Positions 5,634 to 56,727 of a stretch of 64,000 nt of DNA are shown here, piece after piece. The notes beneath the pieces were generated by a model. The model was not told the DNA's origin, searched no databases, and worked only from the letters and a program-made list of their open reading frames with translations. The stretch spans positions 7,567-71,566 of the forward strand of contig JBFOMG010000004.1 in NCBI GenBank assembly GCA_040830725.1. Reading direction: 5' to 3'. Numbering within the stretch: position 1 is the stretch's first letter; the number at the start of each line of letters is the position of its first letter. This DNA comes from Rhizobiaceae bacterium (GTDB lineage: Bacteria > Pseudomonadota > Alphaproteobacteria > Rhizobiales > Rhizobiaceae). A program made the translations under genes and the position numbers.

Positions 5634-5644
5634 TATTTTTCTCC

Positions 5645-39082: not shown

Positions 39083-40102
39083 ATGGTGACAATCTCCAGT
39101 ACAAATACCGTAATGACCGATCCGTTCGGTCGTGATGTCACCTATCTGCGGGTCTCGGTAACCGACCGTTGCGATTTCCGCTGCACCTATTGCATGGCGG
39201 AGAACATGACCTTTTTGCCGAAGAAGGATCTGCTGACACTGGAAGAACTGGACCGGATGTGTTCCGTCTTCATCGAAAAAGGCGTCAGAAAACTCCGGCT
39301 GACAGGCGGGGAGCCACTCGTCCGAAAAAATATCATGCATCTGGTGCGGCAATTGTCGAGGCACCTCAAATCAGGTGCCCTGGACGAACTGACACTGACG
39401 ACCAATGGTTCACAGCTGGCGCGCTTTGCAGATCAACTCGCTGATGCCGGCGTTAAGCGCATCAATGTCTCGCTCGACACGCTCGACAAAACCAAATTTC
39501 AGCAGATCACCCGTTGGGGCCAGCTGGGCAAGGTGATGGAAGGCATTCAGGCAGCCGAGAACGCCGGGTTGAAAATCAAGATCAATGCAGTAGCGCTTAA
39601 GAATTTCAACGATACCGAAATACCCGAGATGATACGCTGGGCCCATGGCCGCGGGATGGACATGACCGTCATCGAGACCATGCCCATGGGTGAAATCGAC
39701 GAGGACCGGACCGACCAGTATCTGCCGTTGTCGCAACTTCGTCAGGATCTCGAAAAGCAATTCACATTGAACGATATTCCGTTCAAAACCGGCGGCCCTG
39801 CACGCTACGTCGAAATTGCGGAAACCGGTGGCAAACTGGGTTTCATCACGCCGCTAACCCATAATTTTTGCGAAAGTTGCAACAGGGTTCGCCTGACATG
39901 TACCGGAACCCTTTACATGTGCCTTGGCCAGGATGACGCTGCCGACCTGCGAGCAGCACTTCGTGCTTCGGAAGGAAACGAACTGGTATCCGCCGCGATC
40001 GATGAAGCGATCACCCGCAAGCCCAAGGGCCATGATTTCATCATCGACCGAGGCACTCAGCGTCCTGCGGTGGCGCGGCACATGAGTGCGACAGGCGGCT
40101 GA
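39083..40102 (+). CDS. moaA: GTP 3',8-cyclase (radical SAM, Moco biosynthesis)
   Basis: [18 protein letters not shown] radical-SAM motif and C-terminal [14 protein letters not shown] cluster. ATG at 39113 is an alternative start. Confidence 0.92.
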
Positions 40103-40284
40103 TCTCGCATTTGATCAACCATTTGCACTTCGTGCAATCATCGAATCCCGGCAACCCAGCCATGCGCTGAGCGCATTGGTAATCAGTTTGTCCGTGACAT
40201 ATCTGTTGCTTGTCGAGACCGGCGCCAGCCGGTGAAAAATCAAGGCGCATCCTCCCAGCGCCGAGGGAATTCAGGAACAGACCA

Positions 40285-40440
40285 ATGAGCGATCATCGCG
40301 ATCACACCCAGAACGAAGCCTTTCGCGGATATGACTACTACATGGAACGCGCACGGATCGAGCGCAGCAAAGCTGCCCGCCGCTTTTTCCGCCGCCTTGT
40401 TGGTGCGGTAGACAAGGCCGACACCAAATCCTGGGGCTAA
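40285..40440 (+). CDS. 51-aa hypothetical basic protein
   Basis: MSDHRDHTQNEAFRGYDYYMERARIERSKAARRFFRRLVG. Followed by a 9-bp perfect hairpin at 40457-40480. Coding status is uncertain. Confidence 0.3.
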   Translation: MSDHRDHTQNEAFRGYDYYMERARIERSKAARRFFRRLVGAVDKADTKSWG

Positions 40441-40560
40441 CCACTGGTCCCGTGAAGCGGCTGGCGAATTTGCCAGCCGCATCATAGCCGATGCGATGAG
40501 TTCAAGGGTGGCGCAAATAGTAGCCGGTCTGTGATGAATATCACGTGACGCGGGCTTCAT

Positions 40561-41817
40561 TTGGCCCTATGCCGATGCAGTTCGCCCGCAATTCGCCGGG
40601 CACTCACATTGACGGCAACGGATTTCTTGAAACCGGCATCTCCTCCACACATCGTAACTCTGGTGCTCTGCTCGGCCACCGGTGCGCTGTCGATGAACGT
40701 GTTTCTGCCGTCAATGCCCGGTATGGCGCGTTATTTCGGTGTCGACTACGCGTTGATGCAGCTGACCGTCTCGCTGTTTCTTGCCTCGACCGCCGTTTTG
40801 CAACTGATCGTCGGACCTTTGTCAGACCGCTTCGGCCGCAGGCCAGTCATGATCACTTGCTTTCTGATCTTTCTTGCTGCCACTGCCGCGGCAACCCGCT
40901 CGACAAGTTTTGAATTCCTCCTGGCCATGCGCATACTGCAATCATTCTCGGCAGCGGGAATGGTGCTGTCGCGCGCCATAGTTCGTGACCTGGTCGAACC
41001 AAATCGAGCCGCCAGCATGATCGGATACGTGACCATGGGCATGGCGCTGGCGCCGATGATCGGGCCTGTCATCGGCGGGTTGCTGGAGCAGGAATTCGGT
41101 TGGCAATCCACTTTTATACTGACTTTTGCCTTCGGCTTGGTCGCATTTGGCTTTGTCTGGTTCGATCTCGGCGAGACAAACCTGAATCGGACATCCAGTT
41201 TTGCTGCGCAGTTCAGGGCCTATCCCGAACTCCTGACGTCACGCCGATTTTGGGGCTACACGCTGACGGCCGGATTCACGTCTGGACAGTTTTTTGCCTT
41301 CCTCGGCGGCGGGCCATTTGTTGCCTCCGAAATCCTTGAACTCCAGCCGGCGGAATATGGTCTTTATTTTGGCATCATTTCGGTTGGTTACATTTTCGGC
41401 AATTTTCTGTCGGGCAGGCTTTCAGAAAAAATGGGCATCAATCGAATGATGCTAGCTGGTGGAATTCTAGCCTCGCTTGGGATGCTTGCTTCGCTGCTGC
41501 TTTTCGCTTCCGGTTTGTTCCATCCACTATCGCTATTCGGTCCCGTGATCATGACAGGTGTCGGAAACGGACTGACATTGCCCAACGCCGGAGCCGGCAT
41601 CGTAAGCGTCAGACCGCATCTGGCCGGCTCTGCGTCGGGTCTCGGATCGGCAATGCAAATCGGATTGGGTTCGGTGCTGGCGGTTGTCGCGGGCGCCTTG
41701 CTTACGGCGCAGTCTGGCCCCTATCCGCTGATCTGGGTCATGCTCGCCACATCTATCGCCGGTGTATTCACAGCGCTATATGTAATCTTCGTGGAAAGGC
41801 AATTGGCGAGACAATAG
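40561..41817 (+). CDS. MFS transporter, Bcr/CflA drug-resistance subfamily
   Basis: 12-TM pattern. GPLSDRFGRRPVM motif A. The start codon is uncertain. Confidence 0.85.
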   Translation: MALCRCSSPAIRRALTLTATDFLKPASPPHIVTLVLCSATGALSMNVFLPSMPGMARYFGVDYALMQLTVSLFLASTAVLQLIVGPLSDRFGRRPVMITCFLIFLAATAAATRSTSFEFLLAMRILQSFSAAGMVLSRAIVRDLVEPNRAASMIGYVTMGMALAPMIGPVIGGLLEQEFGWQSTFILTFAFGLVAFGFVWFDLGETNLNRTSSFAAQFRAYPELLTSRRFWGYTLTAGFTSGQFFAFLGGGPFVASEILELQPAEYGLYFGIISVGYIFGNFLSGRLSEKMGINRMMLAGGILASLGMLASLLLFASGLFHPLSLFGPVIMTGVGNGLTLPNAGAGIVSVRPHLAGSASGLGSAMQIGLGSVLAVVAGALLTAQSGPYPLIWVMLATSIAGVFTALYVIFVERQLARQ

Positions 41818-41842
41818 CGTGGCATGTGCCCAGAAGAAGAAG

Positions 41843-42736
41843 ATGTCTGACCGAATAGATGAATTCGCCGTCAAACCGGATCCCGGCAATCCCCGGCTAT
41901 CCGTGAAAGTGCAGGGCATCGACCACACCGGAAATCCGATCACTCAGCAGGTGGTCACAGAAAAACCGCTGACGCTGTATCTCAACCGACAGGAGATCGT
42001 CACGATGATGACGATTGGCGATCATCCAAATCTGCTTGCGGTCGGTTATCTTCTGAACCAGAACATGCTCAGCCCGGAAGACGAGATTGAGGGAATTGAT
42101 GTCGATGAAGATCTTGATGTCATAGTCGTTCGGACAGCACGAGAAACCGATTATGAGACAAAGCTGCAAAAAAAGGTTCGCACGTCCGGCTGCGCTCAGG
42201 GAACTGTTTTTGGTGACGTCATGGAAGGCTTCGATTCAACCGCTCTGTCGACGACCGCCAGACTGAAAACATCCTGGCTTTATGAACTGACCAAGAAAAT
42301 CAACACGGCGCCAAGCCTTTATCTTGAAGCCGGTGCAATTCACGGCTGTGTGCTGTGCCAAGAGGACAAACCGCTTGCCTATATGGAAGATGTCGGCCGG
42401 CATAACGCCGTCGACAAGATTGCCGGCTGGATGTTCATGAACGGAATATCTGCAGCCGACAAGATTTTCTACACAACCGGACGCCTTACTTCGGAGATGG
42501 TGATCAAGACCGTGATGATGGGTATTCCCATATTGGTGTCGCGATCAGGTTTCACGGCTTGGGGTGTCGATCTCGCCCGCCAGGCGGGACTGACCTTGAT
42601 CGGCCGGGCTCGCGGCAAGCGATTTATCGCGCTCTCCGGTGAAAACCGAATTGTCTTCGACCTCGATCCTGAAACCATCGCCGAAGAAGGCGATCGTCAT
42701 CTCCGCCGGGGTGCCAGACGGGCGGCCGCCGAGTGA
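41843..42736 (+). CDS. fdhD: formate dehydrogenase accessory sulfurtransferase
   Basis: SGCAQGTVFG (catalytic Cys loop) and EDVGRHNAVDK motifs. ATG at 41843 preferred. Confidence 0.9.
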   Translation: MSDRIDEFAVKPDPGNPRLSVKVQGIDHTGNPITQQVVTEKPLTLYLNRQEIVTMMTIGDHPNLLAVGYLLNQNMLSPEDEIEGIDVDEDLDVIVVRTARETDYETKLQKKVRTSGCAQGTVFGDVMEGFDSTALSTTARLKTSWLYELTKKINTAPSLYLEAGAIHGCVLCQEDKPLAYMEDVGRHNAVDKIAGWMFMNGISAADKIFYTTGRLTSEMVIKTVMMGIPILVSRSGFTAWGVDLARQAGLTLIGRARGKRFIALSGENRIVFDLDPETIAEEGDRHLRRGARRAAAE

Positions 42737-43362
42737 CAGTTGCCGGCGTCATTTTGGCTGGAGGCCAATCGCGGCGCATGGGCGGTGGCGACAAGAGCCT
42801 GCTTTCGATTGCCGGAAGTACCATGCTGCAAAGGGTCGTCGACAGGCTCAGACCGCAGGTCGGAGAACTGGCGCTCAACGCAAATGGTGATTTGTCCAGA
42901 TTTTCCGGCATCGGGCTTCCGATCATCACCGATCCAATCGACGGTTTTGCCGGGCCGCTTGCAGGTGTGCTTTCCGGCATGCATTGGGCCGCTTCACTTG
43001 GACCGTCACCAACCCATATTGTTACAGTCGCTTCCGACACGCCCTTCTTCCCAACGAACCTGGTAGCTGGTTTTCGCGACGTGAATGAAGGGGCCACGGA
43101 TCGTATTGTGTTGGCGAGGTCAAACGGAAATCGCCACCCCGTTTTTGGCTTCTGGCCCGTCGCGTTGCGCAACGATCTGGCGAAATTCATGGCAAACACA
43201 GACACTTTAAAAGTCATGGCCTTCGCCAATCATCACGACCTGCGGTTCGCCGATTTCCCGCTGATTGAAATCAACGGATTGGAGGTCGATCCGTTCTTTA
43301 ACGCCAACACGCCCGATGATATTGAAACGGCAGAAAGAATTGCGACGGAGACGATTTCTTGA
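42733..43362 (+). CDS. mobA: molybdenum cofactor guanylyltransferase
   Basis: GVILAGGQSRRMGGGDKSL N-terminal motif. GTGA overlap with fdhD. Confidence 0.9.
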   Translation: MTVAGVILAGGQSRRMGGGDKSLLSIAGSTMLQRVVDRLRPQVGELALNANGDLSRFSGIGLPIITDPIDGFAGPLAGVLSGMHWAASLGPSPTHIVTVASDTPFFPTNLVAGFRDVNEGATDRIVLARSNGNRHPVFGFWPVALRNDLAKFMANTDTLKVMAFANHHDLRFADFPLIEINGLEVDPFFNANTPDDIETAERIATETIS

Positions 43363-43877
43363 CGCATCGCGTGTTCGGCATCACGGGCTGGAAGAATTCC
43401 GGCAAGACGACACTGACCGTTCGCCTTGTGGAAGAGTTGACCGCGCGCGGCTACAAGGTTTCGACGATTAAACACGCGCATCATGCGTTTGATATCGACA
43501 GGCCGGGGGCGGACAGTTACCGACATCGCGAGGCCGGAGCGGGCGAAGTCGCTATTGTATCGGGAACGCGCTGGGCCTTGATGCATGAAATGCGAGGCGA
43601 GAAAGAACCACCGATAGAAGAAATACTCACCCGTCTCGAGCCTTGTGACATCGTGCTGGTCGAGGGCTACAAGCGCGAAAACCACCCAAAAATTGAAGCC
43701 CGGCGCAAGGGTACAAAAGACGATCAGCCCTTGTCGAAAACCGATCCGGCAATTGCCGCCATCGCCTCGGACTATGCGATAACCGGTGAGACATTGCCTT
43801 TGTTCAATATTGATGACATCAGCCGCATCGCCGACTTTGTCGAACTCAAAAGCGGGCTGAAAGAAGAAGCGGCGTGA
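43359..43877 (+). CDS. mobB: molybdopterin-guanine dinucleotide biosynthesis adaptor protein
   Basis: GITGWKNSGKTTL P-loop. TTGA overlap with mobA. Confidence 0.88.
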   Translation: MTHRVFGITGWKNSGKTTLTVRLVEELTARGYKVSTIKHAHHAFDIDRPGADSYRHREAGAGEVAIVSGTRWALMHEMRGEKEPPIEEILTRLEPCDIVLVEGYKRENHPKIEARRKGTKDDQPLSKTDPAIAAIASDYAITGETLPLFNIDDISRIADFVELKSGLKEEAA

Positions 43878-45151
43878 GCACCGGCCGGAAATTGCTGGAC
43901 GATTGTTTCCTGCATGACAAGGACCGGCTCCGCCATGAAGAATGTCTCGGCCTTATCCTTGAGCGACTAGGTCCGGTTACCGGCAAATCGACTGTACCGA
44001 TAGACACCGCGAGTGGAATGTATCTGGCGCAGGATGTCGCCGCACCACGTGACGTACCGTTGCACACCAACTCGGCAGTGGACGGCTATGCATTTGCCCA
44101 TTCATCGCTGGCCGCAACAGGCGGCACGCTGGAGGTTGCGGCGCGAATTGCCGCCGGCGAATTGACCCCTGCCCCGCTTGCAGCCGGCACCGCAGCCCGG
44201 ATCTTCACCGGTGCCACTCTTCCTTCCGGAGCCGACACCGTGGTCATGCAGGAAGATTGTGAAGCGTCATCCGATGGACGGTCTGTAGACATTCCAGCTG
44301 GTGCAAAGCCGGGATCCAACATCCGCAAGGCGGGCGAAGACCTTCGCGCGGGCGACGCTGTTTTAAACACCGGTCAACGATTACGGCCGCAGGATATCGC
44401 TACCCTCGCCTCGATTGGATTCGCCGAGGTGGAGATGTTCGAACCGGTGCGTGTGGCGCTTGTTTCAAGCGGCAATGAACTCGTGCAACCCGGCGAACCG
44501 ATTTCCGAAGGCCAGGTATATGATTCGAATCGAACCATGATTGCCTCGTTATTGTCTTCACTACCGGTACAGGTCACCGATTTGGGTGTGCTGGCAGACG
44601 ATGCATCGATCGTTGAAACGAAGCTTGAGCAGGCCTGTGAAGCCCATGACCTCATCCTGACGTCAGGCGGGGCTTCCCGGGGCGAGGAGGACCATATTGT
44701 CGAGGTGCTGGACAAGCTTGGCAAACGTCACCTTTGGCAGATTGCCATCAAGCCCGGCCGGCCGATGGTGATGGGGCAGATCGGCGATTGCGCCGTTATG
44801 GGTCTTCCCGGAAATCCGGTCGCAGCATTCGTTTGTTTCCTGCTCTACTGCCGTCCCGCCATCGCCCGGCTGGGAGGTGGCATCTGGCTTGAACCGCAGC
44901 GTTTCCCGGTTCAAGCCGGATTCTCGGTGCCAAAAAAGAAGCCGGATCGACGAGAATTTTGGCGGGGATGGCTTGAACATGATCAAGACGGCAGGTTGGT
45001 CGCGCAAAAGTTCACCCGGGACGGCTCCGGGCTGATCTCCGGCCTGCGCCAGGCGACCGGTCTGATTGAAGTCACCGAAGATGTTACTGAAATCAGGCAG
45101 GGGCAGGAATTGGCATTTATCCCGTTTTCGCAATTCGGCATCCATAACTAG
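43874..45151 (+). CDS. moeA: molybdopterin molybdotransferase
   Basis: 425 aa. NSAVDGYA, TSGGASRGEEDH and PGNPVAAFV motifs. GTGA overlap with mobB. Confidence 0.9.
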   Translation: MSTGRKLLDDCFLHDKDRLRHEECLGLILERLGPVTGKSTVPIDTASGMYLAQDVAAPRDVPLHTNSAVDGYAFAHSSLAATGGTLEVAARIAAGELTPAPLAAGTAARIFTGATLPSGADTVVMQEDCEASSDGRSVDIPAGAKPGSNIRKAGEDLRAGDAVLNTGQRLRPQDIATLASIGFAEVEMFEPVRVALVSSGNELVQPGEPISEGQVYDSNRTMIASLLSSLPVQVTDLGVLADDASIVETKLEQACEAHDLILTSGGASRGEEDHIVEVLDKLGKRHLWQIAIKPGRPMVMGQIGDCAVMGLPGNPVAAFVCFLLYCRPAIARLGGGIWLEPQRFPVQAGFSVPKKKPDRREFWRGWLEHDQDGRLVAQKFTRDGSGLISGLRQATGLIEVTEDVTEIRQGQELAFIPFSQFGIHN

Positions 45152-45225
45152 GGATCGAACCCTTCGAGAACGGCGAAGTTGCGATTTGCGCAGACCAAAT
45201 AAGCCAATCTCCAGATTGACCTGAC

Positions 45226-45241
45226 ATAAAGAATTCTTTAT
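45226..45241. promoter_or_regulatory. perfect 16-bp palindrome ATAAAGAATTCTTTAT, candidate operator upstream of the homocysteine methyltransferase gene
   Basis: Read directly from the sequence, ending 32 nt upstream of the ATG at 45274. It shares the half-sites ATAAAGA/TCTTTAT, at identical 2-nt spacing, with the site at 56693-56714. Confidence 0.5.
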
Positions 45242-45273
45242 ATGTTTATTTCTTCCAGCTTTGCAGGTGAACC

Positions 45274-46284
45274 ATGTCGAATCCAATTGATGCACTTATT
45301 GCGGAAAAAGGTGTGTTGCTTGCCGATGGCGCCACTGGCACCAATTTGTTTGCGATGGGCCTGGAGGCCGGCGAAGCCCCGGAACTCTGGAATGAAAGCG
45401 CACCCGACAAGATCCGCGCCCTGCATCAAGGTTTCGTCGATGCTGGCTCTGATATCATCCTGACCAACTCTTTTGGGGGCACCCGCCACCGCCTGAAGCT
45501 GCATCATGCTCAGGACCGGGTGTTCGAACTCAACAAACTGGCCGCGGAAATTGCCTGCGAGATTGCTGCGTCGGTCGAACGGACAATAATTGTGGCCGGC
45601 TCGGTAGGACCGACCGGGGAGTTGCTCCAACCATTGGGCACGCTTTCCTTCGAACAGACCATAGATGCTTTTGTCGAGCAGATAGAAGGCTTGAAGGCTG
45701 GCGGTGCCGAAGTTGCCTGGATTGAGACCATGTCGGCGCCAGACGAAATCCGCGCTGCAGCAGAGGCGGCGATTCGCGTTGGCCTGCCCTACACCTATAC
45801 CGGTTCATTCGATACGGCTGGCCGAACCATGATGGGCCTTCTGCCAAAGGATATTCATGGTGTGAACGAGGATCTTGCGGGTAAACCGGTAGCCGTTGGC
45901 GCAAATTGCGGAGTCGGTGCGTCGGACATATTGGCATCATTGCTGGATATGACCGAAGCGGACGATGACGCAACAATTATCGTCAAAGGCAATTGCGGCA
46001 TCCCGGAATTCCGTGGCTCCGAGATTCACTATTCCGGCACACCGGAGCTGATGGCGGAATATGTTCGAATGGCAATCGATGGCGGAGCAAAGATCATCGG
46101 CGGCTGTTGCGGAACGTCCTGTGATCATTTGAAAGCCATGCGTGCCGCGTTGGATAGCCACACCAAAGGTGCCCGGCCGACAATCGAAGATATTACCGCG
46201 CGCATCGGCCCCATGCGCAACAAGATCGCCAATCAGAATGAGCAAAGCGGCAGCCGCCGCGAACGGCGGAGGCGGAGAGCCTGA
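45274..46284 (+). CDS. stand-alone homocysteine S-methyltransferase domain protein (annotated type: betaine-homocysteine methyltransferase / MetH Hcy-binding module)
   Basis: 336 aa. LLADGATGTNL, ILTNSFGG, GANCG and IIGGCCGTS (zinc-binding Cys) motifs. C-terminal tail SGSRRERRRRRA. Confidence 0.85.
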   Translation: MSNPIDALIAEKGVLLADGATGTNLFAMGLEAGEAPELWNESAPDKIRALHQGFVDAGSDIILTNSFGGTRHRLKLHHAQDRVFELNKLAAEIACEIAASVERTIIVAGSVGPTGELLQPLGTLSFEQTIDAFVEQIEGLKAGGAEVAWIETMSAPDEIRAAAEAAIRVGLPYTYTGSFDTAGRTMMGLLPKDIHGVNEDLAGKPVAVGANCGVGASDILASLLDMTEADDDATIIVKGNCGIPEFRGSEIHYSGTPELMAEYVRMAIDGGAKIIGGCCGTSCDHLKAMRAALDSHTKGARPTIEDITARIGPMRNKIANQNEQSGSRRERRRRRA

Positions 46285-46379
46285 TTGAAAAAATTGACCG
46301 GCAGGTTGCCCCGCCGGCCAAATTTGGCTCCACAAAGAGCCCGCCCACAATTTGCTCCATCTTGCTCCGGTAATCAGTC

Positions 46380-48461
46380 TTAGTCCAACGCGTCGGCAAT
46401 GCGCACAAGCGACAGGAACTCGGCGCGGTATCCATAGGGGTCCGAGCCCCGTGCCGCCTGCGCCAACTTCAAAATCTCGTCGTAACCGTAGTTCGATGTC
46501 TGATCGGTATCACGAAGCTTTTGGCCGAATGCCGCCACCGCCACCGAGAAACGCTGATCATCACTTGCTGACCCAAGGCCATCGACTTCGTTGCTTACAG
46601 TCACGGGCGTCGTGATCAGCTTGCTTGTATCCTCATCGGGCAATTTGTAGCGCAGTTTCAGGAACGCATATTCATCTTCAACGCCAACTGGCCTATCGCC
46701 GTCAAATTGCACGGGTTTTTCGCCTTGCGCGTCCTGATTGGCTGCGTAACGCAGCGCGTCGCTGGTCACTGCCGGACTTCCGATCGGTGTGATCTCATAG
46801 ATTGCAGTCACAGAGTGACCGGAGCCGATATCGCCTGCGTCGATACGATCGTTGTTGAAATCCTCACGTTTCAGCGCACGGGTTTCATAACCGATCAGCC
46901 GGTATTCAGCGACACGGGCCGGATTGAACTCAACCTGGATCTTCACATCCTTGGCAATCGGGAAAAGTGTTGATCCGGCTTCCTCGACAAGCGTTTTTTG
47001 CGCCTCGGCGACCGTGTCGATGTAGGCAGCCTGCCCGTTACCGTTTTGCGCCAATGTTTGCATCAGCTGGTCGTTGTAATTGCCGTGACCAAACCCGAAT
47101 ACTGACAGAAAGATGCCGCTTTCGCGTTTTTTCTCGATGATCCGCTTTAGCGACGCATCGTCTGATACGCCGACATTGAAATCGCCGTCTGTTGCCAACA
47201 TGACACGATTGACGCCATCCTTGACGAAGGCCTGCTCCGCCAGCCGGTATGCCTGCTCGATTCCAGCCGCACCCGCTGTTGACCCCCTAGCCCCCAATGA
47301 ATCGATCACATTGAGAATTTTCGATTTCTCGGAAGCCTTTGTCGGCTCAAGCGCGGTGCCGGCGCTACCAGCGTAGGTCACGATGGATATCGTGTCTTCC
47401 GCATCAAGCCGGTCCAAAAGCATCCTGAAAGAGGTTTTCAATAGCGGCAATTTGTCGGGCTGGTTCATTGAACCGGACGTGTCGATCAGAAAGACAAGAT
47501 TGGCTCGCGGTTTTTCCGATGGCTGAACGTCATAGCCCTTGATCGCCACATGCATCAGCTTGGTGTTCTCATTCCACGGTGACGGCATGACCGTGACCGT
47601 GGAATTAAAAGGTACGGAAATGTTCTCAGGCCCGGCCCAATTGTAAGGAAAATAGTTGATCATTTCCTCAACACGCACCGCATCGGGATTAGGCATACCG
47701 TTTCGCATCAGCGCGCTTCGCACGAACGAATAGGAAGCCGTATCCACGTCGATAGAGAAAGTTGAGACTGGATCGCGCAACGCCTGCTTGACCGGATTGG
47801 TATCAAAATTCTCAAACCGGTCCCGGTTCTGCTCTTCGACGATCACCGGCTCTGGAAGCATGATACGACCCTTTTCGGCCAGCAACTTGGGTTGAGGCGC
47901 CGCTGCCTGCAGGGTTCCGACTGCGTTCGGCCGAGCCTCATCTGCCACGACCAGATTTTCAGCCTCGCGCAGACCATCGACTGCGCGCTCCTCTTTATCA
48001 GAGTCCGCGCGCCCGGCAGTAACCGTATCGACTTCGAGCTGTTGGCGAACCCGCTTGTCGTCAGCGCTGGTTGCCTCGCCTTTCAGTTTCTCTTCCTGCG
48101 GCCTGAAATTGGCGTCCTTCTTGCCGGCAGTCTCGTTTATATCGGCCGGCTCCAGCCTGTCGCCGATCGCAAACGGGGTCTCCTGTGCCAGATACCAAGC
48201 TGCATAGCCTGCGATTGGCAGTGCCAGAATTCCGGCAATTGTCGGTGTCGCACTCAATTTTCGTTCCATCATTGCTCTCCAAAAATCTGCCGCCCGTGAA
48301 CTCAGACGATTTCCAGAAGCTGATCCTTGGGTTGAACTTGAGAATTTTTGCTCGTCGAACGCATCCATTGCCGCTGAAAGCGCGGCGGCGCGCCGTTTTG
48401 CATCCGGTTTTTCCATGGGCATCTTGCCCAGCAGTTTCAATTCACGATCATCCATGATCAT
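46380..48461 (-). CDS. membrane-anchored anti-sigma-like N-terminus fused to a periplasmic von Willebrand factor A (YfbK-type) domain
   Basis: 693 aa. One TM segment (TIAGILALPIAGYAAWYL). VWA MIDAS motif DTSGSM. ATGA overlap with the ECF sigma gene. Confidence 0.8.
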   Translation of the reverse strand: MIMDDRELKLLGKMPMEKPDAKRRAAALSAAMDAFDEQKFSSSTQGSASGNRLSSRAADFWRAMMERKLSATPTIAGILALPIAGYAAWYLAQETPFAIGDRLEPADINETAGKKDANFRPQEEKLKGEATSADDKRVRQQLEVDTVTAGRADSDKEERAVDGLREAENLVVADEARPNAVGTLQAAAPQPKLLAEKGRIMLPEPVIVEEQNRDRFENFDTNPVKQALRDPVSTFSIDVDTASYSFVRSALMRNGMPNPDAVRVEEMINYFPYNWAGPENISVPFNSTVTVMPSPWNENTKLMHVAIKGYDVQPSEKPRANLVFLIDTSGSMNQPDKLPLLKTSFRMLLDRLDAEDTISIVTYAGSAGTALEPTKASEKSKILNVIDSLGARGSTAGAAGIEQAYRLAEQAFVKDGVNRVMLATDGDFNVGVSDDASLKRIIEKKRESGIFLSVFGFGHGNYNDQLMQTLAQNGNGQAAYIDTVAEAQKTLVEEAGSTLFPIAKDVKIQVEFNPARVAEYRLIGYETRALKREDFNNDRIDAGDIGSGHSVTAIYEITPIGSPAVTSDALRYAANQDAQGEKPVQFDGDRPVGVEDEYAFLKLRYKLPDEDTSKLITTPVTVSNEVDGLGSASDDQRFSVAVAAFGQKLRDTDQTSNYGYDEILKLAQAARGSDPYGYRAEFLSLVRIADALD

Positions 48462-49048
48462 TCTTCCCTGGCCCGTTTGGCCAAATCCTTGAGCCGCTTC
48501 TTCGCTTCATGGATGTGCCAGGAGATGGTCGTCTCGGCACATCCCAACACATCGCTCGCATCTCCGTGCGACAGGCCCTCGCCATAAACCAGCAATACCG
48601 CGTCGCGCTGTTTGGCGGGCAGTTGCTGTACCAGCCGCCACAGTTCTGCAGCTCGCGCTTCTTCATCACCGGCGCCGCTATCACCGAACAGCTTGCTGTG
48701 TTCACCCCAGGCCTCTGCCTTTACGGCCTCGCGATTGCTTTTGCGCAACAAGTCCCGGGCAGCGTTAATCGTCAATGCATAGAGCCAGGTGGTAAACCGG
48801 CTTTCGCCCTTGAAATTTTGGATTGCCCTGGCGAGCCGAACACAGACTTCCTGTGTGATATCCTCGGCGTTGGCACGATCGCCACACCAGCGCAGCGCCA
48901 CCCGAAAGACAAAGTCGTAGTGCCGCTCGACAAGCATGGCAAAGGCCGCACGGTCACCCTCGACCGCACGCCCCACCAATGCACCGTCTGACGTGGCATC
49001 CAACCCGCCTTCCGGCACCTCTGCTTCGGCAAGCGTCATGACCTTCAT
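48458..49048 (-). CDS. ECF-type RNA polymerase sigma-70 family factor
   Basis: 196 aa. Region 2 (HYDFVFRVALRW...AEDITQEV) and region 4 (LPAKQRDAVLLVYGEGLSHGDASDVLGCAETTISWHIHEAKKRL). Confidence 0.9.
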   Translation of the reverse strand: MKVMTLAEAEVPEGGLDATSDGALVGRAVEGDRAAFAMLVERHYDFVFRVALRWCGDRANAEDITQEVCVRLARAIQNFKGESRFTTWLYALTINAARDLLRKSNREAVKAEAWGEHSKLFGDSGAGDEEARAAELWRLVQQLPAKQRDAVLLVYGEGLSHGDASDVLGCAETTISWHIHEAKKRLKDLAKRAREE

Positions 49049-49102
49049 CGCCCTTTCGACGAATCGAATGGGCCGATCCTTTGGTTTTTTGATGAAAATA
49101 AT

Positions 49103-49801
49103 CTAATTCGGCGTGTTATTCGCCAAAAAAGCTGCCATGTGAAAGGCTTGAACCTCGGCTGGATACCGGTAATTGGCGCCGACGGGACACGAATTTCGGG
49201 CCAGGCAGCCAGTATTTCTGCAATGGCCATCATCTGCGGTTGAAACATGACCGGCGCAGCCCGCAACATCATAACCGTTCAGGGAGATTGCGCTAACAGG
49301 GCACGTGATCAGGCACGGCTTGTCTTCGCAATCATCGCATGGGTGGCTTGATTTTGGTGGTTGCGGAAGGCCAATCACATCATCAAACAACAATGCTCCA
49401 CGGTATGCATGCCAAAGCCCAAACTCGGGGTGAATCAGAATTCCCAAAGGTGACGGTCTCAACCCCTCTGCCCGACTTGCCCATTGCTGAAATGGCAGCC
49501 ATGGTTTGTCTGATGGAAACACAGCGCGTGCGGAACAGTCAGCAGCGACCACGCAAATGACTTCTCTCGACCACGTATCCAGAGGATTTTCTGGTTTATT
49601 TTTAAATTTTTGTAGCCATTTATTAAAGTGATTCCAATTTCCTGCGCCACGTTGTCCTACCAGCAATACGGACTTGGCAGGTTCGCTACGTATACCGGCT
49701 GGCGCATCCTCATCTTTTGCAAAATCGAAACCGCCTCGCAGAACAAGACCGTTTTCTGCCAGTGCCGCTGCTATCGATTTCAAAAAACCCGGTTCAGCCA
49801 C
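49103..49801 (-). CDS. ferredoxin-like protein with a C-terminal Cys-rich (4Fe-4S-type) region
   Basis: 232 aa. CDDCEDKPCLITCPVSAI followed by CAGH..CRNTGCLARNSCP. I do not recognise the N-terminal domain. Confidence 0.55.
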   Translation of the reverse strand: MAEPGFLKSIAAALAENGLVLRGGFDFAKDEDAPAGIRSEPAKSVLLVGQRGAGNWNHFNKWLQKFKNKPENPLDTWSREVICVVAADCSARAVFPSDKPWLPFQQWASRAEGLRPSPLGILIHPEFGLWHAYRGALLFDDVIGLPQPPKSSHPCDDCEDKPCLITCPVSAISLNGYDVAGCAGHVSTADDGHCRNTGCLARNSCPVGANYRYPAEVQAFHMAAFLANNTPN

Positions 49802-49865
49802 CTTCCTGATCCGGATCCTTGAACGCGGAGCGCCAGACTTCCTTGTGTATCATGTTGGCCACTTT

Positions 49866-49885
49866 AGCCCGGCCGTCCTCGGGCT
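49866..49885. terminator. hairpin abutting the MttB stop codon (weak terminator candidate)
   Basis: AGCCCG-8 nt-CGGGCT. The T-run lies on the plus strand, not on the strand of the gene it follows, so the function is uncertain. Confidence 0.3.
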
Positions 49886-49889
49886 TTTT

Positions 49890-51455
49890 TCACGTGAAAG
49901 CGTCGGGCATCGATTCCTTTTTCTTGGCAATGAATGCCTGCAACGCTTCATCAATGCCCGCATCGAGTTCAGGGGCCTGATAGCTGCTCAACCATTGGCG
50001 CGCCAATTCATTGGCCCTTTGATTTGCGGCTTTCTCACCTTCGGCCTGCCATTGCTCAAACGAATTGTTGTCGGCAATTGTCGAACGGTAGAAGGCGGTC
50101 TGAAAGTTCGCCTGCGTATGGCTGCAGCCAAGATAGTGGCTGCCCGGGCCAACTTCGCGAATGGCATCCAGCGCCTGGTCGTTCTCGGTCAGCGAAACAC
50201 CCTCGGCGATGCGCTGTTGCATGCCCAGTTGATCGATATCCATCATGAACTTTTCGTAGGAACTGACGAGGCCGCCTTCCAGCCAACCAGCGGCGTGAAG
50301 GACAAAATTCGTCCCTGCGAGCACTGTGGAGTTGATTGTGTTGGCGCTCTCATAGGCAGCCTGTGCATCGCTCAGTTTCGAACCACACAAGGACCCACCG
50401 GTTCGAAACGGCAATCCCAGTCTGCGCGCCAATTGTGCGGCTCCATAAGACACGAGTGTTGGCTCAGGGGTGCCGAAGGTCGGCGCACCCGATTGCATGG
50501 AAATTGAAGAGGCAAAAGTGCCAAACAATACCGGTGCACCTGGCCGGACCAATTGCGTAAACGCCGCGCCTGCCAAAACTTCAGCCAGAACCTGGGTCAG
50601 CGTTCCTGCCACGGTGACCGGGCTCATGGCACCGGCGAGGATGAACGGTGCGATAATGCAGGCCTGGTTGTTGCGGGCGTAAACCTTGGCCGCTCCAACC
50701 ATTGTCTCGTCAAAAACCATTGGTGAATTTGCATTGATAAGGCTGACCAACACAGTGTTGTCGGTAACAAACTGCTCGCCGAACAGGATCTTGCACATTT
50801 CGACAGTGTCCTCGGCGCGTTCAGGCGCTGTGACCGATCCCATGAACGGCTTGTCGGAATAACGGATATGGGAATAGATCATGTCGAGGTGGCGCTTGTT
50901 GACCGGTATGTCCACCGGTTCGCACACGGTGCCGCCTGAGTGATGTATTGCCGGCGCCATATAGGCCAGTTTCACAAAGTTGCGAAAATCCTCAATGGTT
51001 GCATACCGGCGCTCACCTTCGAGATCGCGTACAAATGGCGGCCCGTAGACAGGCACGAAGACGGTCGCATTGCCGCCAATCTGCACCGATCTTTCGGGGT
51101 TGCGCGCGTGTTGCGTAAAAACCGGAGGAGCGGATTTGATCAGCGCACGACACAGGCCTTTTGGAAAATGAACTCTTTCACCCTTAACCTCGGCACCAGC
51201 GTTCCGCCAGAGTTCCAGCGCCTCGGTATCATCGCGAAATTCAACACCAATTTCTTCCAGAATCGTATCAGCGTTGGCCTCGATCAGAGCCAGACCTTCG
51301 TCATCAAGCACTTCAAACGGCTTCAATGCCCGCTTTATGTAGGTCAACTGCGTTCCCGGCCCGCCTCCGGATCGTGCGGCGCGCCGGGCGGCCGCACCGC
51401 CACCCGCACGAGCACTGCGCCTTGATCTTCCGCCGTCTGCAGAAACTTCGTTCAT
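49890..51455 (-). CDS. MttB-superfamily (trimethylamine methyltransferase family) non-pyrrolysine methyltransferase, probable quaternary amine:corrinoid methyltransferase
   Basis: 521 aa, uninterrupted frame with no in-frame TAG. Family-typical TIM-barrel segments. N-terminal Arg/Gly/Ala-rich leader GGRSRRSARAGGGAAARRAARSGGG. Confidence 0.88.
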   Translation of the reverse strand: MNEVSADGGRSRRSARAGGGAAARRAARSGGGPGTQLTYIKRALKPFEVLDDEGLALIEANADTILEEIGVEFRDDTEALELWRNAGAEVKGERVHFPKGLCRALIKSAPPVFTQHARNPERSVQIGGNATVFVPVYGPPFVRDLEGERRYATIEDFRNFVKLAYMAPAIHHSGGTVCEPVDIPVNKRHLDMIYSHIRYSDKPFMGSVTAPERAEDTVEMCKILFGEQFVTDNTVLVSLINANSPMVFDETMVGAAKVYARNNQACIIAPFILAGAMSPVTVAGTLTQVLAEVLAGAAFTQLVRPGAPVLFGTFASSISMQSGAPTFGTPEPTLVSYGAAQLARRLGLPFRTGGSLCGSKLSDAQAAYESANTINSTVLAGTNFVLHAAGWLEGGLVSSYEKFMMDIDQLGMQQRIAEGVSLTENDQALDAIREVGPGSHYLGCSHTQANFQTAFYRSTIADNNSFEQWQAEGEKAANQRANELARQWLSSYQAPELDAGIDEALQAFIAKKKESMPDAFT

Positions 51456-51756
51456 AGCAATCCCTCAGAGCCATTCTTAACGGTCCAATCGCCCGTTTTC
51501 CAGAATCGTAGTTGACGTCTCGCGTTGAACGTTTCCGCCAACGCCAAGGCGTGTCGCAAAAGCGATAAGGCAGCAAGTGCGGAACTCCAATTCGAGCTGT
51601 CCAACTACGCCATTCAGGGACAGGCAAGGCAAAGTGGCGTTATCGTCGTCGCGCACGTCGCAATCCGGCTATGCCATTGGCATCTGGAGGAAATATGGAT
51701 AGTGAAGATATCACCATTGCGCACTGCGCCGGGCGAATCTGAGGGAGCCTCCGGAA

Positions 51757-52455
51757 ATGTCTGATGACGAAATCATTCTGTCCGAACTGAGTGACGACGA
51801 GCTCGTGCCGCAGATGCACGATGATCTTTATGACGGGCTGAAGGAGGAAATCGAGGAAGGTACCCAGATTCTGCTCGATCGTGGCTGGATGCCTTATGAT
51901 GTACTGACCAAAGCTCTGGTCGAAGGTATGCGCATCGTGGGTGAGGATTTCCGTGACGGTATCCTGTTTGTGCCGGAAGTCCTGCTATCAGCCAATGCGA
52001 TGAAGGCTGGCATGGCGATTCTGCGCCCACTGCTTGCGGAGACCGGCGCCCCAAAACTCGGCAAGATGGTCATTGGTACCGTCAAGGGTGATATTCACGA
52101 TATCGGTAAAAACCTCGTCGGCATGATGATGGAGGGAGCCGGCTTTGATGTGGTCGATCTCGGCATCAACAATCCGGTCGAAAACTATCTCGAGGCCATT
52201 GAGCGCGAGGAACCCGACATTGTCGGCATGTCGGCATTGCTCACAACAACCATGCCCTACATGAAAGTGGTCATCGATACGATGGTTGAGAAGGGCATCC
52301 GTGACGACTACGTCGTGCTTGTAGGTGGCGCCCCGCTGAACGAGGAATTCGGCAAGGCTGTTGGAGCCGACGCTTACTGCCGAGACGCTGCTGTAGCGGT
52401 TGAAACCGCCAAGGAGTTCATGTCGCGCCGTCACAATCAACGCGCCACTGCGTAA
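51757..52455 (+). CDS. corrinoid (cobalamin-binding) protein, cap helical domain plus B12-binding Rossmann domain
   Basis: 232 aa. DxHxxG motif GDIHDIGKNLV, then SALLTTT and GGAPL. N-terminal 35 aa contain 14 Asp/Glu and 1 Lys. Confidence 0.9.
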   Translation: MSDDEIILSELSDDELVPQMHDDLYDGLKEEIEEGTQILLDRGWMPYDVLTKALVEGMRIVGEDFRDGILFVPEVLLSANAMKAGMAILRPLLAETGAPKLGKMVIGTVKGDIHDIGKNLVGMMMEGAGFDVVDLGINNPVENYLEAIEREEPDIVGMSALLTTTMPYMKVVIDTMVEKGIRDDYVVLVGGAPLNEEFGKAVGADAYCRDAAVAVETAKEFMSRRHNQRATA

Positions 52456-52558
52456 ACTTTTGGGCATTGGCCGAGACTCGGCCATATCGGCGAGTGTTCC
52501 CGGCTGTGCGGATCTCACAATTTGAGCAATGCAGGATGTGTATGCGGGCTACACATGC

Positions 52559-52605
52559 AAAAAAATACCGCGCCGCGATGCCGCCGCTTGGCACCGGGCG
52601 CGGTA
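52559..52605 (-). terminator. strong minus-strand intrinsic terminator with no confidently annotated gene upstream of it
   Basis: On the minus strand: TACCGCGCC...GGCGCGGTA (9 bp), extended by a 7-bp inner stem (CGGTGCC/GGCATCG with one G-U), then T7. Confidence 0.7.
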
Positions 52606-53173
52606 CACCGGGAAAGACCATGGGGCAACGGTCAAGTTGTCCGGTGTCAAACTGATCGGCCTTACGACAGGCCGTTAGTTTCGTTTCCGTCGCCAATTAT
52701 CCGTTTTGGCGATTCGACAGTGGCGGCCCCCCGCCGCTGTATTTCGTTTCGTTCCCATATATTCCTAAACCGGGCGAACCCCGCCATCATTTGACCGTCG
52801 ATGGTGATCGGCAACGAGCCTGGTCAGCATGGCCGAACCCTGTTCCGCGAAATGTTTCATCTGTGCGCGCCTGCAGCGGCGAACAGCACGACGATGTTGA
52901 ATTGCGTCTCTCCAATGGTGCGTCGAGCGCGGCTCCGTACGCTCAAAAACCGGCAGAATGTTTGGAAGTTCAATCGTGTAATCCCCAAACGTAGCCTGTA
53001 TCCCGTTCCTTCCTTGATGTAACTGGCCCATTTCATCCTCCCTGGGCAGGCGGTTGCCATCGCCTGAATTCATCACTACATGCATCCAACTGCTGCGTAC
53101 GTGAATTAAATCACACAACGTCGTGAATTCTCCGTGATATTTCACCGGTCGGCCACTGCCCAGGAGTTGGAAA

Positions 53174-53815
53174 TTGGACATTTCGACCCGAAAGAAGAGG
53201 CAAAACGGCGAAATCCGGACCCAAAAGGTCCGAATAATTGCCTGTGGAATGATCGCTCGTGAAGTTCTTGCAGTTAAAGAACGTCACGGACTGGAAAACC
53301 TGGATCTGGTGTGTTTACCGGCGCAATTTCACTATTACCCGGATCGTATCGCCCCGGCGATGGAAGAAGCGATTCAGCAGGCAAAAGAGGAAGGCGTTGA
53401 GCACATACTCGCCGGATATGCAGATTGTGGAACCGGCGGGCATCTTGATCTTGTCTGTGAAAAATACGGCATAGACCGAATCGACGGTCCTCATTGTTTT
53501 GCGTTCTATCAAGGCATGAAGTCCTACGAACAGGTTGCTGACGAGGACATGACGGCGTTCTACATGACTGATTTTTTGTGCCGGCAGTTTGACGCTTTTT
53601 TCATGAAACCGCTTGGCCTTGATAAGCACCCTGAACTGGCGAGCGACTATTTCGGCCACTATGAGAAACTGGTGTATCTTGCTCAGACGGATGACCCGTC
53701 TCTCGACCAGGTGGCTGAAGACGCGGCCAGAATGTTGGGACTTCGATACGAGCGTCGATATACGGGATATGGCGATTTGACGACATCACTGTTGGCCGCC
53801 ACCGCGACGCCATGA
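53174..53815 (+). CDS. DUF1638 domain protein
   Basis: 213 aa. VRIIACGMIAREV N-terminus and GYADCGTGG motif as I remember for DUF1638. TTG start 7 nt after AGGAG. Confidence 0.75.
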   Translation: MDISTRKKRQNGEIRTQKVRIIACGMIAREVLAVKERHGLENLDLVCLPAQFHYYPDRIAPAMEEAIQQAKEEGVEHILAGYADCGTGGHLDLVCEKYGIDRIDGPHCFAFYQGMKSYEQVADEDMTAFYMTDFLCRQFDAFFMKPLGLDKHPELASDYFGHYEKLVYLAQTDDPSLDQVAEDAARMLGLRYERRYTGYGDLTTSLLAATATP

Positions 53816-53915
53816 ATGTGTTATAGTGTGTGCGCCAGTTAACAGCAGATTTACGGGCGCGATGTAATCTTGTGCAGGGTATTTACCCACGCATGCGCGC
53901 CGAGGCATATGGACC

Positions 53916-54551
53916 ATGGACGACCTGACTGCTGACAGTGCCTTAAGAGCCAGCCCTGCGCCCCGGCGCCTGTCGGTGATAATCTCCCAACTGGCACAAA
54001 ATGCGACCGGTCCCGTGTCCATCGAGCAGATTCGCGATGCTTTGGGCGACCGGTCTTTTGCGGCAATGCTGGCGTTTTTCGCTGTATTGAACCTTGTGCC
54101 CTTCCCTCCAGGTACGACGTTAATCCTGGGACCGCCCCTGGTCATTGTCGCGGTCCAGATGGCGCTCGGCCACCATCGAGTGTGGTTGCCGAAATTTGTG
54201 CTTCGAAAATCCGTCAGCCGTGAGCGCTTCGTAGCCATGACTGAGCGGCACCTTCCAAGACTGCTGCGTTTGGAGACTTTGATTCGGCCGCGGCATTGGC
54301 CCTTTACCGACAGTGGTTTGGCTGATCGAATCATTGGATGGTTTGCGCTTGTTCTCTCCATTGCGGTCACCATCCCAATCCCCCTCGGCAACTGGCTGCC
54401 TGCACTCGGTATCCTGTTGATTGCATTCGCACTTTCCGAGCGTGACGGAATCCTTTTCTATGCTGGGGTGTTCGTGGGCACGTTGGCACTTGTTGTCATC
54501 GCTGCGGTGATTGGTGCTGCTGGAGCAGCCGCAGGCATTCTGTTTGGCTGA
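53916..54551 (+). CDS. ExoD-family membrane protein
   Basis: 211 aa. LGDRSFAAMLAFFAVLNLVPFPPG and TM-rich C-terminus are typical of ExoD. Confidence 0.8.
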   Translation: MDDLTADSALRASPAPRRLSVIISQLAQNATGPVSIEQIRDALGDRSFAAMLAFFAVLNLVPFPPGTTLILGPPLVIVAVQMALGHHRVWLPKFVLRKSVSRERFVAMTERHLPRLLRLETLIRPRHWPFTDSGLADRIIGWFALVLSIAVTIPIPLGNWLPALGILLIAFALSERDGILFYAGVFVGTLALVVIAAVIGAAGAAAGILFG

Positions 54552-54684
54552 AACCCGGTTTTCCCAGTTCATACGCCCGCGTCGTTTTTGAATTTGCCGG
54601 TGTCGTCCTGTAAACAGCGGCAAAGCGGCCCTTCCGGCAATTGTCCGCGCAACTATCAGGCCGCTGTTTTGTTGGGAACTGACC

Positions 54685-54987
54685 ATGGCTGATCTCACCA
54701 TCGTCTATTGGCGCGATATTCCCGCGCAGGTCATTGTCAAGAAGGGTCGCGCAAATGCCAAGCGCGAACTTCCGCTTCGATTCACAGAAGCAATTGATAT
54801 GTGTGCCATGCGTTCCGGTGCTGACGATACCGATGCCTATCTCGCCGAATGGCGCCGGGGAGAACCTGTTTCAGTTGGAGATGACCTCGAGATCGAAGCT
54901 GACAAGGCGATGAACGAAATCGATTCCGCCTATCCCAAGGATCGGCTGGTGGCGTTGGTCAATGCCGGTGGTATCGACAATGGCTAA
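54685..54987 (+). CDS. small conserved protein of the family usually annotated 'virulence factor' domain, found next to MTHFR_C genes
   Basis: 100 aa. MADLTIVYWRDIPAQVIVKKGR. Overlaps the next gene by 8 nt (ATGGCTAA). Confidence 0.55.
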   Translation: MADLTIVYWRDIPAQVIVKKGRANAKRELPLRFTEAIDMCAMRSGADDTDAYLAEWRRGEPVSVGDDLEIEADKAMNEIDSAYPKDRLVALVNAGGIDNG

Positions 54988-55564
54988 AAATACACCAATC
55001 GTCACTCAGGCAACCAAGGTGCGTAAAGCCGCGCCAAAGCTTGCGTATAAACCGGCGCATGTCAGTCCGACTCAACGGTTGCGCAAGGGATATACAATCA
55101 GGCTTTGGTCGGTACGGCATTCCCGCAGCCTGGAGTGGCTCTATGAGCAGTTCGCCAATATCTTTTTGATGCTGCACCCATTCTGGAAGGCGGTCGGCTA
55201 CCATCGCGCCGAAAAGCCGGTGACGTTTGTGGAAAGGCGTGTCAAGGGCCTATTGTTCGACTGCCGCATGTGTGGACAGTGCATCTTGTCGTCGACGGGC
55301 ATGTCTTGTCCCATGAATTGCCCAAAACAGCTTCGCAACGGCCCATGCGGTGGCGTTCGTGCTGACGGCAATTGCGAAGTCGAGCCTGACATGCCTTGTG
55401 TTTGGGTTCAGGCGTGGGAAGGCGCTGAGCGCATGCGGGAAGGTGAGCAGAACCTCGCAGCAGTGCAAAAGCCGGTCGACCAATCTTTGCGGGAAACCTC
55501 TTCCTGGTTGCGGGTAACGGCATCTGCAGCGGCTGAACGAGCCGCCAAGAATGGTGGCAAGTAA
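54980..55564 (+). CDS. methylenetetrahydrofolate reductase C-terminal-domain protein (MetV-like, Cys-rich)
   Basis: CRMCGQCILSSTGMSCPMNCPKQLRNGPCGG motif. ATG at 54980 preferred over track start 54962. Confidence 0.8.
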   Translation: MAKNTPIVTQATKVRKAAPKLAYKPAHVSPTQRLRKGYTIRLWSVRHSRSLEWLYEQFANIFLMLHPFWKAVGYHRAEKPVTFVERRVKGLLFDCRMCGQCILSSTGMSCPMNCPKQLRNGPCGGVRADGNCEVEPDMPCVWVQAWEGAERMREGEQNLAAVQKPVDQSLRETSSWLRVTASAAAERAAKNGGK

Positions 55565-56667: not shown

Positions 56668-56692
56668 CGACGGTTGAAACCAATCACACAGC

Positions 56693-56714
56693 GATATAAA
56701 GAAATCTTTATATC
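56693..56714. promoter_or_regulatory. 22-bp palindrome GATATAAAGA-AA-TCTTTATATC, candidate operator immediately upstream of the pterin-binding methyltransferase gene
   Basis: 10-bp perfect arms read directly from the sequence. It lies between the metF stop (56667) and the ATG at 56728, and has the same core as the site at 45226-45241. Confidence 0.5.
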
Positions 56715-56727
56715 ATTGGAGAAAATA

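Follow-up and report, generated by a model that had tools for sequence, protein, structure and literature searches.

A gene annotated as betaine–homocysteine methyltransferase in a Rhizobiaceae bacterium probably encodes the homocysteine module of a split cobalamin-dependent methionine synthase

Introduction

Cobalamin-dependent methionine synthase (MetH) may be divided among several polypeptides in Alphaproteobacteria. Using fitness data of Phaeobacter inhibens, Price et al. described in 2018 a three-part MetH consisting of PGA1_c13370 (homocysteine module), PGA1_c16040 (pterin module), and PGA1_c13350 (B12 module), whose reactivation in addition depends on a RamA-like and a DUF1638 protein; methionine rescued all five mutants (PMC5764234). 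In Ruegeria pomeroyi, mutants of mtgC and of mtgD are auxotrophic for methionine, and supplying it does not enable them to use glycine betaine (Mausz et al. 2025, PMC12478193). The same study named the homocysteine module MtgE and proposed a methyl flow from MtgB to MtgC and then to MtgD or MtgE. In this study, I analyzed a stretch of 64,000 nucleotides from a Rhizobiaceae bacterium (GCA_040830725.1, contig JBFOMG010000004.1, positions 7,567 to 71,566), hereafter called the window, which carries a stand-alone homocysteine methyltransferase gene, mtgE, annotated as bmt or bhmT. A preliminary description, made from the sequence alone, had proposed that this protein works in a split MetH and had remarked that such systems were proposed from alphaproteobacterial genetics. 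The remark fits the P. inhibens work of Price et al. (PMC5764234). The proposal itself gained support from the presence of the modules, the MetH-like homocysteine module, the operator responsive to S-adenosylhomocysteine (SAH), and the published orthologous systems. Since the window matches the published system gene for gene, including a MetF2 equivalent next to mtgD, the proposal is regarded here as correct and as already published; the split-MetH reading dates from 2018 and 2025 and is not new. What remains of value is the SahR wiring of mtgE and of mtgD-ramA, together with the conserved basic and acidic extensions of the proteins.

A related system within the same bacterial order is that of Sinorhizobium meliloti, in which mtgBCDE lie together with the reactivation genes and the cobalamin operon (Mausz et al. 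2025, PMC12478193). The S. meliloti Bmt (SMc04325) was originally described as a true betaine–homocysteine methyltransferase (BHMT). Mausz et al. re-read this Bhmt as MtgE, disputing betaine as its methyl donor on residue grounds, and also reported that metF2 adjoins mtgD and that genomes having both metH and mtgBCD typically belong to Hyphomicrobiales (PMC12478193). In P. inhibens, deletion of bmt causes methionine auxotrophy (Narvaez-Barragan et al. 2025, PMC12366255).

Comparison of the locus with the described systems

As shown in Table 1, all partner modules of mtgE are encoded separately within 15 kb of the window (45274-60033). Six system genes lie within 10 kb, and mtgE is 3.6 kb off. 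The preliminary description had listed separate genes for a pterin-binding module, a B12-binding module, and a RamA-type activase, and Pfam and NCBIfam models located all three where they had been placed; the DUF1638 gene and the two-part methylenetetrahydrofolate reductase (MTHFR) are further system genes beyond that list.

Table 1. Features of the mtg locus, in window coordinates
Feature	Position	Strand	Description
Promoter-like element	45215-45243	+	ATTGAC-N17-TTATAT, read by eye; palindrome covers spacer and -10 box
SahR-type palindrome	45224-45243	+	ACATAAAGAATTCTTTATAT, 20 bp; ends 30 nt before the mtgE ATG
mtgE (annotated bmt/bhmT)	45274-46284	+	ATG start, 336 aa; stand-alone zinc-dependent homocysteine-binding methyltransferase module
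MtgE basic C-terminal cluster	46255-46278	+	RRERRRRR, residues 328-335, after variable low-complexity linker
G+C-rich hairpin	46294-46321		Between convergent mtgE and VWA genes; terminator-like on - strand, may act both ways
MttB-family methyltransferase	49890-51455	-	Non-pyrrolysine, MtgB-like (quaternary amine:corrinoid); PF06253 MTTB, E 3.9e-238
MttB Arg-rich N-terminal extension	51369-51434	-	GGRSRRSARAGGGAAARRAARS, residues ~8-29
mtgC	51757-52455	+	Corrinoid (B12-binding) carrier, 232 aa; PF02607 B12-binding_2 and PF02310 B12-binding
DUF1638 gene	53174-53815	+	PF07796, E 6.6e-24
ExoD gene	53916-54551	+	Between DUF1638 gene and MTHFR pair; position kept in L001 and L061
Two-part MTHFR (MetF2 equivalent)	54962-56667	+	DUF5981 "MTHFR C-terminal" 54962-55564 (PF12225) and MTHFR 55564-56667 (PF02219)
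Second SahR-type palindrome	56694-56713	+	ATATAAAGAAATCTTTATAT; in 60-nt MTHFR-mtgD gap, 14 nt before the mtgD ATG
mtgD	56728-57702	+	Pterin-binding methyl-tetrahydrofolate:corrinoid methyltransferase, 324 aa; PF00809 Pterin_bind
MtgD Arg-rich C-terminal tail	57646-57699	+	GGRSGRRGGRAARAGARG
RamA/RACo-type reductive activase	57988-60033	+	681 aa; Fer2 (2Fe-2S) and RACo linker/middle/C-terminal; PF00111, PF17650, PF17651, PF14574
RACo activase Arg-rich C-terminal tail	59986-60030	+	GGRRRRRDGGRRSRS; outside AcsV model match (residues 9-640)

Like the MtgBCDE system of R. pomeroyi DSS-3 and the split MetH of P. inhibens, the window has separate MtgE, MtgC, and MtgD, an MttB-family MtgB, a RamA-like activase, DUF1638, and MetF2 by mtgD, and one corrinoid hub for both methionine synthesis and betaine demethylation is proposed here as it was there. 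In contrast to the scattered genes of the roseobacters, the window is a clean and compact example of MtgBCDE. Unlike the roseobacters, it comes from a metagenome-assembled genome (MAG) resembling Rhizobiaceae/Phyllobacteriaceae, a group usually keeping metH. With S. meliloti Bmt it shares the order, the NCBIfam equivalog family, and the co-location of mtgBCDE with the reactivation genes; S. meliloti also has a canonical MetH. The Desulfitobacterium hafniense MtgB-MtgC-MtgA system likewise combines an MttB-family betaine methyltransferase, a corrinoid protein, a pterin-binding methyltransferase, and a RamA-type activase. However, that system is anaerobic and has no homocysteine module, and neither its MtgB nor the related corrinoid proteins have the basic and acidic extensions described below.

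Canonical MetH of Escherichia coli, Thermotoga maritima, and Thermus thermophilus has the same homocysteine-barrel fold, zinc cysteine triad, and Asp/Glu ligands as MtgE, and the same chemistry, from methyl-Co(III) to a zinc thiolate, is expected for MtgE. The window differs from canonical MetH in having separate modules, an ATP-dependent activase of the RACo/RamA type instead of the AdoMet-dependent reactivation domain, and a basic extension on each partner. No full-length MetH was found among the open reading frames (ORFs) of the window, and no PF02965 match was found in the window ORFs scanned against Pfam. A MetH-sized ORF of 1242 residues on the minus strand (16771-20499) turned out to be PutA (proline dehydrogenase and aldehyde dehydrogenase).

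The assignment of the partner genes was examined with curated models and PDB sequences. The MttB-family protein scored 949 bits with 4yyc (presumably an S. meliloti protein), 427 bits with 2qne (which I take to be D. hafniense MtgB), 426 bits with 9yce ("glycine betaine methyltransferase"), and 129 bits with 7xcl, a pyrrolysine-type trimethylamine MttB. Since these scores favor 4yyc, 2qne, and 9yce over the pyrrolysine-type MttB, the window protein is assigned as a quaternary-amine enzyme of the MtgB type. MtgD passed the NF005719 model of methyl-tetrahydrofolate:corrinoid methyltransferase (405 bits, cutoff 259). The mechanically called ORF of mtgD begins at a TTG (56674), while its homologs align from the ATG at 56728. 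The Cys-rich DUF5981 gene and the MTHFR gene together are presumably more like the MetV-MetF pairs of acetogens than like E. coli MetF. MtgC did not reach the cut-off of either the MtgC or the MtbC model of NCBIfam, which agrees with the published view of proteobacterial MtgC as a distinct lineage; MtgC is also phylogenetically distinct from the B12 domain of MetH according to Mausz et al. (PMC12478193).

The gene order mtgE, VWA (von Willebrand factor A) gene, sigma factor gene, anti-sigma factor gene, mttB, and mtgC is kept in two relatives, L001 and L002, whose MtgE proteins are 92% and 83% identical to that of the window; several Mesorhizobium genomes have it too. The MTHFR-[site]-mtgD-RACo arrangement, in which the site is the second palindrome, recurs in four other genomes (L061, L029, L024, and L056).

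MtgE resembles the homocysteine module of MetH

The MtgE protein is 100% identical to an NCBI protein of a Rhizobiaceae MAG, and more than 120 homologs with 78-92% identity were found in Mesorhizobium, Aminobacter, Nitratireductor, and Chelativorans. The preliminary description had held that the protein consists only of the homocysteine S-methyltransferase domain, carries the GANCG and GGCCGTS motifs, and belongs to a type usually annotated as BHMT. Indeed, PF02574 (S-methyl_trans) is its sole Pfam match, covering residues 15-293 of 336 as a full-length match (E 7e-60), and the two motifs lie at residues 209-213 and 276-282. The protein also passes the NCBIfam model NF005718, "betaine--homocysteine S-methyltransferase" (556.6 bits, cutoff 338), and the source annotations agree. 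The NF005718 match explains the database name of MtgE and is no test of the methyl donor. Thousands of database entries carry this name, while the active site and the fold are MetH-like. Beyond annotation, the system matters for reconstructing metabolism, in particular whether soil and marine Alphaproteobacteria are methionine prototrophs and depend on B12.

In an alignment with MetH and human BHMT, C212, C278, and C279 of MtgE fall on the zinc cysteines, so that the triad is intact, and the Asp and Glu that bind homocysteine are matched by D18 and E151. These zinc and homocysteine ligand positions are invariant or nearly so among 61 homologs with identities down to 35%. The human BHMT sequence used in this alignment was checked against PDB 8d45. 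Human BHMT residues Tyr77, Tyr160, and Trp44, which I take from the BHMT structural literature to form the betaine pocket, correspond to Gly68, Thr152, and a gap in MtgE, the same as in MetH. Moreover, the BHMT-specific insertion after the first zinc cysteine is missing from MtgE. The two enzymes have in common the PF02574 barrel, the zinc site, and methionine as the product, as does the SAR11-type Bhmt; nevertheless, a true-BHMT assignment of MtgE was rejected because of the pocket residues and the missing insertion.

Against PDB sequences, MtgE matched best with T. maritima MetH, in its homocysteine domain (139 bits, E 2.5e-39); Thermus and human MetH came next, while E. coli MmuM (5dml) scored 53 bits and human BHMT only 41.6 bits. 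An AlphaFold2 model of MtgE had a mean pLDDT of 95.1 and a pTM of 0.91, with the last ~26 residues falling to a pLDDT of 64-78. In a Foldseek search of this model against the PDB, homocysteine domains of MetH took all of the first 17 places (E down to 5.6e-25, TMq ~0.8), and BHMT and MmuM ranked after them (E ~1e-16, TMq ~0.7). Thus, MtgE is closer to the MetH homocysteine module than to true BHMT, both in sequence and in predicted fold. The canonical MetH model (TIGR02082 / NF007024) gave 136.6 bits against a cutoff of 1010.85, matching the first module only. An MmuM-type assignment was also rejected, because the MmuM/YagD model NF007020 gave 79.4 bits against a cutoff of 215.

mtgE and mtgD share a SahR-type operator

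The preliminary description had pointed out an operator-like palindrome common to the homocysteine and pterin modules. This was borne out: with up to three mismatches, the window has only two such sites, whereas 100 shuffles gave an expectation of 0. The mtgE palindrome is kept in L001 and L002 and in the loci of Mesorhizobium, Hoeflea, and Rhizobium. The promoter-like element upstream of mtgE matches CTTGAC-N17-CTATAT, presumably the rhizobial promoter consensus, and a strict sigma-70 consensus scan gave no promoter upstream of mtgE or mtgD.

To identify the operator, the sequence ATAAAGANNTCTTTATAT was scanned against 185,579 species genomes, which yielded at least 120 loci, almost all in Alphaproteobacteria. 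The genes flanking the sites were clustered, and one representative per cluster was annotated. Among the matches listed, the flanking genes encode AhcY (at least 42), a protein with an ArsR helix-turn-helix (HTH) and an S-adenosylmethionine (SAM) methyltransferase domain (at least 40), MtgE (at least 9), MetK (at least 5), MtgD (at least 4), full-length MetH (at least 3), and MTHFR (at least 2). The ArsR-HTH plus methyltransferase architecture is that of SahR, the SAH-responsive regulator. As published, the motif of SahR is a palindrome of 20 bp, and the core regulon of SahR agrees with the flanking genes found here (Leyn et al. 2014). A study of Ensifer aridi also predicted SahR sites upstream of ahcY, metH, metK, bhmT, and sahR. 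The SahR site sequences are not given in the text of Leyn et al. (2014) or of the Ensifer aridi paper. Since the composition of the regulon in the genome scan matches the published SahR core regulon, the window palindrome is a SahR operator, identified by its regulon. The window ORFs covered by the Pfam scans include no sahR, in the sense of an ArsR-plus-methyltransferase gene.

SahR presumably binds at mtgE and mtgD, and the two genes would probably be derepressed on SAH build-up together with ahcY, metK, and metH. The palindrome is common to mtgE and mtgD but not to the betaine-loading mttB gene. In terms of regulation, the SahR sites place mtgE and mtgD in the SAM cycle and not in betaine catabolism, and this independently supports the view that they act in methionine synthesis. 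The placement of mtgE and of the internal mtgD-ramA unit in the SAH-responsive SahR regulon, which fits this role, is what the present analysis adds to the published system. A scan of the whole window with Rfam at gathering thresholds gave no riboswitch match, and therefore no SAM-II, SAH, or cobalamin riboswitch seems to control these genes.

A split methionine synthase and its alternatives

Taken together, it is quite likely that the product of mtgE is the homocysteine module in a methionine synthase that depends on cobalamin and consists of separate polypeptides. The domain content, the zinc and homocysteine ligands, the likeness to MetH, and the neighborhood with its conservation are observed. 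By analogy with the roseobacter mutants, the need for the separate modules in methionine synthesis and the dual role of MtgC and MtgD are supported as well. In the proposed mechanism, MtgE would bind homocysteine, activated as a zinc thiolate by Cys212, Cys278, and Cys279, and would take the methyl group from methyl-Co(III) on free-standing MtgC, giving methionine and Co(I)-MtgC. The pterin-binding MtgD would reload MtgC from methyl-tetrahydrofolate (methyl-THF). When glycine betaine or a related quaternary amine is the growth substrate, the MttB-family MtgB may reload MtgC instead; MtgD would then run in reverse, passing methyl groups to THF for oxidation by the MetF2-type reductase. Conceivably, methyl groups of betaine could also travel through MttB and the corrinoid protein straight to homocysteine, bypassing THF. 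Co(II) forms would probably be rescued by the RamA/RACo-type activase with DUF1638. The window may be an example in which one corrinoid carrier is common to the synthesis of methionine and the demethylation of glycine betaine.

Several points weigh against this split methionine synthase. The mtgE gene is 3.6 kb away from the rest of the cluster, with an unrelated VWA/ECF (extracytoplasmic function) sigma unit in between. The putative orthology of MtgE to PGA1_c13370, SPO1884, and SMc04325 was drawn indirectly from NF005718 and the published S. meliloti Bhmt-MtgE homology. Moreover, since Hyphomicrobiales having mtgBCD usually have metH, the split enzyme may act conditionally or redundantly and not be the sole methionine synthase. 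The name that the NCBI curated model NF005718 gives to the family also speaks for a different function, and so does a biochemical result: purified P. inhibens Bmt reportedly made methionine directly from betaine and from dimethylsulfoniopropionate (DMSP) without THF or cobalamin (PMC12366255). This in vitro result conflicts with the residue argument, and a direct activity may exist.

The last two points are the basis of an alternative in which MtgE acts alone and without a cofactor as a betaine (or DMSP):homocysteine methyltransferase, taking its methyl group straight from the quaternary amine or sulfonium donor, and the corrinoid genes serve only the demethylation of betaine to THF. I consider this alternative unlikely. 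The betaine-pocket residues are replaced as in MetH, and the sequence and the fold are nearer to MetH. The corrinoid- and pterin-module mutants of P. inhibens and R. pomeroyi are methionine auxotrophs despite an intact bmt/mtgE, and an S. meliloti bhmt mutant supplied with methionine still grows on betaine (Mausz et al., PMC12478193). Furthermore, mtgE shares its operator with mtgD and not with the betaine-loading mttB. It is far less probable still that MtgE is a salvage enzyme of the MmuM/YagD type, using S-methylmethionine or SAM as the methyl donor. Such an enzyme would have the same Pfam domain, and E. coli MmuM matches MtgE in both sequence and structure; however, the NF007020 score is far below its cutoff, the MetH homocysteine domains match MtgE much better, and the C-terminal extension of ~40 residues with its basic tail is missing from the short forms of the family (~290-300 residues). 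The genomic context is also one of corrinoid and THF genes.

Basic and acidic terminal extensions

The preliminary description had assigned an Arg-rich tail to all corrinoid clients. A C-terminal tail was found in MtgE and MtgD and also in the RACo activase, but the feature of MttB is N-terminal and not a tail. These are the Arg-richest termini among the 49 ORFs of the window, with 8 Arg in 12 residues at the C-terminus of RACo, 7 of 12 in MtgE, 5 of 12 in MtgD, and 7 in the first 35 residues of MttB. The N-terminus of MtgC is the most acidic of the same 49 ORFs, having 14 Asp/Glu in residues 1-35 (nucleotides 51757-51861). The extensions of the four MtgC partners are ~35-45 residues each and consist of a low-complexity variable linker followed by RRERRR or GGRRRGGR.

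In all of the 120 close homologs of MtgE listed, 5-7 of the last 15 residues are Arg/Lys, typically arranged as RRERRR, and the linker before the Arg cluster varies among them in length and sequence. When representatives of 50%-identity clusters were counted by form, the basic tail was found in 33 of 40 stand-alone extended homologs, in contrast to 1 of 35 among the short forms and 1 of 23 among the fused ones. L001 and L002 keep the tail of MtgD, the N-terminus of MttB, and the acidic N-terminus of MtgC, and the MttB N-terminus is also present in PDB 4yyc. On the other hand, homologs of the anaerobic and MetH types for which structures have been solved or curated models exist lack the basic and acidic extensions: the MttB extension is missing from 2qne and 9yce, whose alignments begin at query residues 39 and 45, and the MtgC extension from 1y80, 7xcn_M, and 4jgi.

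It is conceivable, as a tentative idea, that the Arg-rich extensions and the acidic MtgC N-terminus are complementary electrostatic tethers which replace the covalent linkers of MetH. The free modules would then compete for one B12 carrier and stay near it. If true, the way in which separate modules locate their common carrier could be accounted for by the basic tails and the acidic handle of MtgC. Mausz et al. (2025) do not mention arginine, tails, or electrostatics, Price et al. (2018) have no tether idea either, and a literature text search for Arg-rich features of corrinoid-protein partners found nothing. The conserved Arg-rich extensions on all four partners, together with the acidic MtgC N-terminus, may be a new finding.

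Neighboring genes

Between mtgE and mttB, the minus strand (46380-49801) carries genes for a VWA/YfbK protein, an ECF sigma factor, and a 232-residue protein of no known family, possibly an anti-sigma factor. This trio lies beside mtgE in the relatives and in several Mesorhizobium genomes and has no evident functional link to methyl transfer; it was set aside as a conserved but unrelated neighbor rather than a part of the system. The gap of ~700 nucleotides between mtgC and the DUF1638 gene (52456-53173) contains no convincing gene and no Rfam match but has a strong terminator-like hairpin (52717-52740). L001 has a gap at the same place, and its DUF1638 protein was called as only 99 residues.

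Upstream of mtgE on the plus strand, there is a molybdenum-cofactor cluster of moaA, a major facilitator superfamily (MFS) transporter gene, fdhD, mobA, mobB, and moeA (39083-45151). A molybdopterin oxidoreductase is encoded at 5645-13056 with NarJ-like, DUF3305, DUF3306, and 4Fe-4S proteins. The oxidoreductase and the molybdenum-cofactor set look like a unit of the formate dehydrogenase type, which would fit the oxidation of betaine-derived one-carbon units.

In L002, the stretch 1716-5943, 8 kb upstream of mtgE, encodes a second MttB paralog, which also has an Arg-rich N-terminus, next to a DAO/FAO_M/GCV_T protein resembling dimethylglycine dehydrogenase. The second paralog hints that one corrinoid hub may receive methyl groups from several quaternary amines.

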